NCBI GenBank assembly: GCA_018716885.1
Contig: DVJI01000011.1
Location: forward strand, 24,609-88,608
Direction: 5' to 3'
Origin: Candidatus Enterousia intestinigallinarum
GTDB lineage: Bacteria; Pseudomonadota; Alphaproteobacteria; Rs-D84
Length of the DNA stretch: 64,000 nt
Positions 25,811 to 26,115 of the stretch are shown here, piece after piece. Position numbers and translations under genes: made by a program. The notes under the pieces are model-generated. The model saw only the letters and a list, made by a program, of their open reading frames with translations, ran no database searches and was not told the origin of the DNA. Each line of letters starts with the position of its first letter. Within the stretch, counting starts at the first letter, position 1.

Positions 25811-26047
25811 CAAAAAAAATCGCCCGGTGGGCGATTTATTTTGTGGTGGATGGCTGGGGATTCCCTCGCACGGCGCGAAAGTCGCACCGGCTGCGGGGCA
25901 TTCGTTCGCGTATGCCGTTGGCATACTGCACTCGCATTTTATTAAAATGCTCGTTGACTCATTGTCAAACACCCCGCGGGGGTTTTCGTCCCACATCCCC
26001 GTACACAAAAAAAATCGCCCGGTGGGCGATTTATTTTGTGGTGGATG
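25811..26047 (-). repeat. 42-bp exact direct repeat (tRNA-Val 3' end plus terminator) at 25811-25852 and 26006-26047 enclosing a 153-bp multi-hairpin insert
   Basis: caaaaaaaatcgcccggtgggcgatttattttgtggtggatg present twice. Confidence 0.95.
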
Positions 26048-26115
26048 TTGAGGGACTCAAACCCCCGACCCTCTCGGTGTAAACGAGATGCTCTAATCAA
26101 CTGAGCTAAACATCC
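26039..26115 (-). tRNA. tRNA-Val(TAC)
   Basis: ggatgtttagctcagttgattagagcatctcgtttacaccgagagggtcgggggtttgagtccctcaacatccacca; cloverleaf, encoded CCA. Confidence 0.95.

Follow-up and report, generated by a model that had tools for sequence, protein, structure and literature searches.

What is the short segment that separates a tRNA-Val(TAC) gene from an exact second copy of its own 3′ end? The question is raised by positions 25811 to 26115 of the window, the 64,000-nt stretch of Candidatus Enterousia intestinigallinarum DNA analysed here. The original prediction had described a tRNA gene with its terminator, behind which a 153-bp insert leads to 42 bp that exactly repeat the tRNA tail and terminator, and ARAGORN, Rfam and repeat searches confirmed this layout. 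It proposed either a minimal integrative element flanked by attL/attR-like sites or a tRNA-mimic RNA. We favor a different reading. With a probability that we put at roughly 70%, the insert and the duplicated tail are an eroded copy of a lineage-specific family of tRNA-linked repeats resembling the RtT repeats of Escherichia coli.

All parts of the locus are read on the minus strand. The tRNA-Val(TAC) gene (26039..26115), identified by ARAGORN and by the Rfam tRNA model with 66 bits, encodes its own CCA end, and the promoter scan places a promoter-like site upstream of it at 26158-26130. Behind the gene, the repeat and terminator scans revealed terminator 1 (26006..26038), whose hairpin (26012-26032) is accompanied by bidirectional A/T tracts, and further downstream terminator 2 (25811..25843), identical to terminator 1 at 33/33 positions. 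The whole direct repeat extends over 53 nt with 91% identity (25811-25863 versus 26006-26058), and its first 42 nt, 25811-25852 and 26006-26047, are identical. This identical part consists of 9 nt of tRNA end and the 33-nt terminator, so that copy 1 (26006-26047) comprises terminator 1 and the last 9 nt of the tRNA-Val(TAC) gene itself; copy 2 occupies 25811-25852, and 153 bp (25853-26005) lie between the two. Five terminator-like sites were found by the scan at this locus, against 0.8 expected, and both terminator hairpins are among them. We also notice a promoter-like site, TTGCCA-17-TAATAT (25785-25813, minus strand), which overlaps terminator 2 and lies upstream of a 215-aa open reading frame (25105-25752).

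The module begins 34–39 nt past the tRNA-Val(TAC) gene on the same strand, depending on whether the start of the insert (26005) or of its first arm (26000) is counted. This 5′ arm, GGGGAUGUGGGAC (25988..26000), was recognized as an inverted repeat and in the fold, and is a diverged reverse complement of the T-stem 3′ strand and the acceptor 3′ strand of the tRNA. It is followed by the hairpin P2, GAAAACCCCCG/CGGGGUGUUUGA (25965..25987), which is supported by the fold and by the (Y)GARAACC...GGUUCGA block, and whose 3′ strand reproduces the 5′ strand of the host T stem together with T-loop nucleotides 54–58, including the unusual UUUGA of this tRNA. The core (25862..25964) belongs to a type that we call family C, as indicated by a match at 25844-25973 (73 bits, E 7e-16) to R1, our covariance model of this family, and by covariation in the stems P3 and P4. 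From 5′ to 3′, the core contains the X segment CAAUGAGU, P3, the Y segment ACGAAUGCCCCGCAG, the P4 hairpin (25869-25890) and CGAGGGA, and two additional hairpins (25934-25950, 25910-25926) enlarge P3. The module closes with the tail AUCCCCAGCCAUCCACCA (25844..25861), a copy of tRNA nucleotides ~59–76 that matches tRNA-Val(TAC) at 13/18 positions; the last 9 nt are exact, and 5 mismatches occur in the 18 overall.

Folding the minus strand of 25844-26000 yielded a minimum free energy (MFE) of −69.7 kcal/mol (z = −5.4), and none of 200 shuffled sequences was as stable. All stems named in the original prediction are present in this fold, and its description of the insert as a discrete, cloverleaf-like multibranch module with a tRNA-derived CCA tail holds. 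The acceptor-like closing stem that it proposed exists in a weaker form: the arm and the module tail make up the helix P1 from GGAUG/CAUCC (5 bp) and GGGA/UCCC (4 bp), interrupted by an internal loop, whereas the real tRNA tail would pair better with the same arm (6+5 bp). Because P1 is irregular and the 5′ arm is able to pair with the discriminator and C74, there is no clean 7-bp stem with an NCCA overhang. The 3′ strand of P2 has an alternative partner, CGAAUGCCCC (25895-25904), which gives the 11-bp stem of the original prediction, and this pairing matches the UUCG/CGAA helix of RF00391, the Rfam model of RtT.

In order to see whether the module stands alone, we turned to the assembly from which the window comes (919 kb in 13 contigs, 98% complete, 44 tRNA genes). 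Two checks named in the original prediction, a genome-wide BLAST of the insert and an inspection of all tRNA 3′ flanks, reveal a multi-copy family. BLAST detected two partial relatives, behind tRNA-Arg(ACG) and tRNA-Lys(CTT). Scanning the flanks of all 44 tRNA genes then showed that 15 are followed, 85–190 nt downstream, by a second copy of at least their own last 9 nt, namely those for Trp, Arg-CCT, Gln-TTG, Tyr, Gly-TCC, two Met, Glu-TTC, Pro-CGG, Val-TAC, Cys, Arg-TCT, Gly-GCC, Arg-ACG and Lys-CTT. Eroded or truncated modules lie behind two tRNAs beyond these 15, His (at a contig end) and Leu-CAA. Since 14 other tRNAs of the genome and more than 100 related genomes show this layout too, an assembly artefact, which the original prediction had named as a possible refutation, is excluded.

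The modules share one architecture. On the tRNA strand, which is the strand of every module, an arm is followed by the (Y)GARAACC...GGUUCGA hairpin, a core and a tail. The arm corresponds, with some divergence, to the reverse complement of the tail, and in the GGUUCGA hairpin, the 3′ strand has the sequence of the host T stem (5′ strand) and of T-loop nucleotides 54–58. The structured core of 60–100 nt is sited where T-loop nucleotide 58/59 of a partial tRNA copy would fall, and the tail consists of the last 18–19 nt of the tRNA with CCA, usually with a copy of the terminator after it. In the MFE folds of the 15 modules, arm and tail form the closing helix. The left end of the direct repeat lies at T-loop nucleotide ~56–59 in 13 of the 15 module-bearing tRNA genes, while its right end varies from 0 to +69 nt past CCA and usually takes in the tRNA terminator. 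Two modules adjoin their tRNA without an intervening terminator.

Three core types are distinguished by sequence. Family A reads GGUUCG-CAUACGAGU...ACGAGUGGUGAG...CGAACA; family B, GGUUCGAA-CCGCNGC...GGCGGACGG...CCAGGUGRCGMAGYA; and family C, GGUUCGA-CAAUGAGU...ACGAAUGCCCCRCAG-hairpin-GCGAGGGA. Families A and C are related, since R1 finds the modules of Gln, Trp, Tyr and His as well. Copies at unrelated tRNAs of the genome are diverged and differ throughout P3 and P4. A second module of the window was located by ARAGORN and the flank scan behind tRNA-Cys (41257..41600, minus strand). Here, the tRNA (41527-41600) and its terminator (41492-41526) are followed by a family-A module with a Cys tail (41326-41491), a terminator copy and the start of a third arm (41257-41325). 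At this locus, the direct repeat measures 87 nt (98% identity), and R1 matches the module weakly with 11 bits. As the repeat extends into the start of the third arm, we regard the locus as a partial tandem unit.

Among relatives, BLAST matches of the insert were confined to the conserved 3′ half of the core, and we therefore used covariance models, R1 for family C and R2 for family B. R1 found full-length matches in 57 of 61 genus genomes, with 1–18 per genome. In an order-wide draw, it detected 80 of 91 genomes of the taxonomic family to which the genus belongs (f1) and 0 of 29 from other families. R2 matched 51 of 71 f1 genomes, and 50 of 63 within the genus, together with weak matches in a second taxonomic family. 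Tandem arrays of modules are common among the relatives. A 15-mer scan of public genomes and viral contigs returned mostly chance matches, which we filtered with R1; the true matches came only from gut metagenome-assembled genomes deposited under Candidatus Enterousia sp. or uncultured Alphaproteobacteria.

The alignment of 41 distinct family-C copies revealed compensatory changes in the stems. Paired cells amounted to 94.2%, compared with 73.5% in shuffles and 24–47% in slid controls, and 151 cells were changed on both sides, a number reached by none of 500 shuffles; the alignment was fitted to the model, which biases it toward pairing, and the hand-picked alignment A1 already had compensatory pairs. 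Mutual information identified further covariation, at two apical P3 pairs and in an X:Y contact. At the Arg-ACG module, which we compared among 6 species, the junction nucleotides are constant and the changes in P3, P4 and X/Y are coordinated, while divergence has accumulated in the terminator, the arm and the promoter region. Fixed junctions, concerted stems and drifting flanks form the pattern of a selected structure. As to the strand, the folding energies are close (−53.3 kcal/mol for sense versus −51.5 for antisense, with sense better in 46 of 82), and counts of G-U versus A-C do not tell the strands apart.

The tails follow the neighboring tRNA. At 24 of 36 family-C loci, the 18-nt tail has 0–1 mismatch to the upstream tRNA, and this tracking includes a variant of tRNA-Arg(ACG) seen at two loci in two genomes (L044, L226). 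Cores at the same tRNA differ among species at Tyr, Arg-TCT and Pro-CGG. At tRNA-Val(TAC), a search for empty alleles, suggested in the original prediction, showed that at least 20 of 29 genus genomes contain only the tRNA, its terminator and unique flank. G036 and G002 have family-C modules at this site, and G038 matches the present genome as far as its contig ends. G017 retains a decayed remnant. In G008, a family-B core with a perfect tail sits on the same arm and hairpin as in the present genome, and the two cores part directly after GGGGUUUGA. Modules of this family are thus gained and lost, amplified in tandem and replaced in their cores between species.

Modules may also move between tRNA genes with like ends. 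The genes for tRNA-Ser(GGA) and tRNA-Ser(CGA) share a 3′ end in G054 (L285/L286, C3) and in G069 (L287/L288, C1), and in each genome the near-identity of the two loci covers the terminator, the module and ~60 nt of flank beyond it. Such pairs indicate gene conversion or segmental copying between the isoacceptor loci, and therefore that modules spread by homologous recombination between tRNAs with like ends. At L009 and L010 (G004:C11, G006:C1), arrays with a tRNA-Lys(TTT) tail lie behind a degenerate tRNA or a 3′ tRNA fragment, which means that modules can persist without an intact tRNA directly upstream.

The Val-TAC copy itself departs from the tracking pattern. Its tail variant AUCCCCAGCCAUCCACCA has neither an equal tRNA tail nor another copy among 121 genus genomes, and for this reason we consider it diverged rather than borrowed. 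Its R1 score of 73 bits is among the lowest of the intact full-length copies. The copy looks eroded because of its mismatched tail, its arm favoring the real tRNA, its enlarged P3 and this low score, and it may be decaying.

The repeats behind tyrT had been named as a precedent by the original prediction, and rightly so, as the same blocks are present there. The RtT RNA of E. coli (rttR) corresponds to tRNA-linked repeats, among them the 178-bp repeats behind tyrT-tyrV. In strain K-12, RF00391 finds 17 copies, 13 of them above its threshold, at tyrT, proK, the lysT operon, valU-lysV and other tRNA loci, and E. coli copies are also assigned to the serX and argQZYV regions. On the tRNA strand of the K-12 tyrT-tyrV locus, the arm GGGGAAGGAU is complementary to the tail and is followed by UGAGAACC...AAGGUUCGA; the 68-nt core ends in ...GGGUGAGG...CGAAUA, and then comes the tail AUCCUUCCCCCACCACCA. 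In the Tyr, Pro and Lys copies, the tail is formed by the last 18 nt of the neighboring tRNA, from T-loop nucleotide ~59. We also notice that four RtT matches in the lysT operon (L250; E. coli K-12, 780.5–781.8 kb) take their GGUUCGA from the T arm of a real tRNA-Lys, after which a spacer of ~100 nt ends in a Lys tail; those copies are therefore without an arm of their own.

The modules and the E. coli repeats have much in common. Both lie behind a tRNA gene on the same strand, carry a tail copied from that tRNA and a 5′ anti-tail arm, form a closing helix around internal hairpins and occur in tandem arrays. Both show the UGAGAACC...GGUUCGA block, a core and then the AUCC tail, with the 3′ block GGUGAG...CGAAYA|AUCC, and the distance from GGUUCGA to the tail is 68 nt in E. 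coli RtT and 67–73 nt in families A and B. The statement of the original prediction that the tyrT repeats do not have such a multibranch fold does not stand, as RF00391 contains a closing helix of anti-tail arm and tail as well as internal hairpins. Because a matched tail and a multibranch fold are found in the E. coli copies as well, both belong to the known RtT family. The modules differ from RtT in having three core families by sequence, of which family C has an X/P3/Y/P4 core of its own, and longer anti-tail arms. They are mostly bracketed by duplicated intrinsic terminators, whereas RtT lies inside tRNA operons. The host is different too, an alphaproteobacterium with a 0.9-Mb genome in which about one third of the tRNA genes are affected and RelA/SpoT was not found.

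Whether this likeness reflects common descent was addressed with model searches in both directions. None of 41 genus genomes has an RF00391 match above the gathering threshold of 45 bits, and the best score is 29.4 bits. Four sub-threshold, full-length matches of 24–29 bits occur in the genus. Two of them fall exactly on modules of the present genome, those behind Tyr (29.4 bits, genome E 4e-4) and Arg-CCT (24.1 bits); the others lie on the Val-TAC module of G008 and in G048, where the match aligns with family B. In the reverse direction, R1 scores 8–9 bits on E. coli RtT and R2 finds no match there. When the cores alone were aligned to E. coli RtT, the Tyr module reached the highest z (3.2), and the alignments of families B and C fell short of significance. 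With failing reverse searches and a marginal core-only alignment, common descent is no more than plausible, and the likeness could also be convergent. As the RF00391 scores remain below threshold, we file the modules as a divergent RtT-like variant by architecture and not as members of the Rfam family.

Rfam and the annotation of E. coli have listed RtT for decades, to our knowledge without an accepted function, and the only function we know to have been proposed for it is a modulation of the stringent response. In the 98%-complete assembly, no RelA/SpoT domain (PF04607) was found, and therefore this role cannot apply in the present genome. Members of the RtT family gave Northern-blot bands in Actinobacillus (PMC4986893), and the same secondary source, citing Bosl and Kersten (1991), reports E. 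coli RtT as an RNA released from tRNA transcripts by processing.

A similar route is conceivable for the modules. The promoter scan found no sigma-70-like promoter between terminator 1 and the arm, and most likely the RNA would arise together with the tRNA, by co-transcription or read-through, and then be trimmed at its tRNA-like tail. Transcription would start at the tRNA promoter and pass through terminator 1 into the module; where tRNA and module adjoin without a terminator, it would enter the module directly. The tRNA 3′-end machinery would then trim the transcript to a folded, CCA-ended RNA of ~160 nt, as secondary sources report for E. coli RtT. The direct repeats of tail and terminator may in turn drive concerted evolution with the tRNA, the formation of tandem arrays and precise loss by recombination. 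For the function of such an RNA, we can offer a guess, that it mimics a tRNA 3′ end or acts as a decoy or competitor for end-processing enzymes.

Several other explanations have to be weighed. In one of them, the core is a non-autonomous cassette, driven by a reverse transcriptase or a nuclease, that inserts between nucleotides 58 and 59 of T-arm DNA; a target-primed fold-back would give rise to a direct repeat, fixed at one boundary and variable at the other, and to an inverted copy of the tRNA end whose synthesis is primed at the terminator hairpin. This agrees with the left repeat boundary fixed in the T loop and the right one ranging from 0 to +69 nt, and with the sense, antisense, sense arrangement of the tRNA 3′ part. 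The Val-TAC scaffold with its family-B core in G008 and family-C core here, the at least 20 empty relatives, the remnant in G017 and the differing cores at Tyr, Arg-TCT and Pro-CGG would also be expected of a cassette. Genes for a reverse transcriptase are present in 31 of 81 genus genomes, and the two that we examined lie beside tRNA genes; they are, however, convergent neighbors outside the module. The present genome has no reverse transcriptase (PF00078, 0 matches) despite at least 15 modules, nor a Y1 transposase (PF01797, 0 matches; 1 of 81 genus genomes). Moreover, the copies at unrelated tRNAs are old, near-identical pairs appear only at tRNA-Ser isoacceptors sharing a 3′ end, structural constraint has kept the modules of a given tRNA in place in different species, and loss of modules is explicable by direct-repeat recombination. 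We consider a mobile cassette unlikely.

In a broader version of this idea, an undescribed class of elements would home to the tRNA T loop and insert its cores at nucleotide 58/59, and the RtT-like repeats, the E. coli ones included, would be its living or fossil members. The tRNA 3′ end would be copied once backwards and once forwards by a target-primed or nuclease-triggered fold-back. We judge this, with its mechanism, to be quite improbable. The two reverse-transcriptase genes examined, at L226 (G046:C27:116500-122500) and L223 (G056:C13), encode ~343 aa and lie convergently within ~150–210 nt of tRNAs, which are tRNA-Arg(ACG) with a module and tRNA-Val(CAC). Two known kinds of element were also considered. 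An IS200/IS605-type palindrome element (PATE/REP) would involve the Y1 transposase, which is absent from the genome and found in 1 of 81 in the genus. For a target-primed, SINE-like retroelement, the repeat boundaries do fit, but the reverse transcriptase is absent and unrelated copies are diverged.

The module might also be the scar of a tyrosine integrase, or a miniature integrative element with attL and attR at the tRNA 3′ end, as the original prediction had suggested. T-loop-type integrases leave a direct repeat from the T loop to past the tRNA end. The direct repeat seen here, which extends from the T loop beyond the tRNA end, the tandem arrays and the presence or absence among species are shared with att scars and with cis-mobilizable or miniature elements. 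The idea nevertheless fits poorly. At least 15 different tRNAs are hit in a 0.92-Mb genome that has only two tyrosine recombinases (C13:101149 and C10:4517), neither of them near the module on contig C9. The core interrupts the second T arm after nucleotide 58, so that a conserved core lies within the would-be overlap and an intact attR core is missing. Covarying stems are unexpected for protein-binding arm sites, and integration does not produce an inverted copy of the tRNA end such as the arm. Among 45 IMG/VR contigs with the 15-mer, none carried a true R1 match (best E 0.006), the loci having been picked by one 15-mer. An integrase scar is thus very unlikely.

The other proposal of the original prediction was a tRNA-mimic RNA. 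In the form that we considered, the module would be a working mimic that is aminoacylated or employed in the manner of tmRNA or a primer tRNA. The CCA end identical to that of the tRNA, the closing helix and the four arms would suit it. So would a genome that encodes CCA in all 44 tRNA genes and in whose 98%-complete assembly no head domain of a CCA-adding enzyme or poly(A) polymerase (PF01743) was found. The tRNA-like domains of tmRNA and of the bacterial Y RNA (YrlA) likewise close a multi-helix RNA by paired 5′ and 3′ ends and contain a T-loop-like GGUUCGA. Unlike these, the module has a tail taken from the neighboring tRNA and no acceptor stem of tRNA geometry. ARAGORN found no tRNA or tmRNA gene in 25780-26040; Rfam at E <= 10 returned for 25000-27000 only the tRNA itself, with no RtT, tmRNA or YrlA match in the insert, and for two sister loci only tRNA and noise. 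In addition, the arm often pairs with N73 and C74, the irregular P1 varies in length between copies, and folding predicts pairing for the GGUUC within the T-loop-like block. These searches give no support for a true tRNA or tmRNA mimic, which seems to us highly improbable. A tmRNA gene is found at G000:C10:40415-40746, marked with an asterisk by ARAGORN, with the tag AANDNVRLAMAA and a listed 3′ end without CCA. This fits the permuted two-piece form, which is known in Alphaproteobacteria. Hammerhead ribozyme, group II intron, retron, bridge RNA and T-box were dropped, either with no model match or with the wrong size or order of parts.

For annotation, tRNA-tail repeats like these should not be called att sites of prophages or islands. 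The comparative set provides natural experiments, since it includes the three families of cores, a tRNA at which cores have been exchanged, arrays and sites that are empty. Our analysis describes the RtT design expanded to about one third of the tRNA genes in a 0.9-Mb genome and structurally selected across the genus; genomes this small are usually expected to shed useless DNA. As a role in the stringent response is inapplicable here, attention moves to tRNA 3′-end metabolism or to a self-propagating mechanism.
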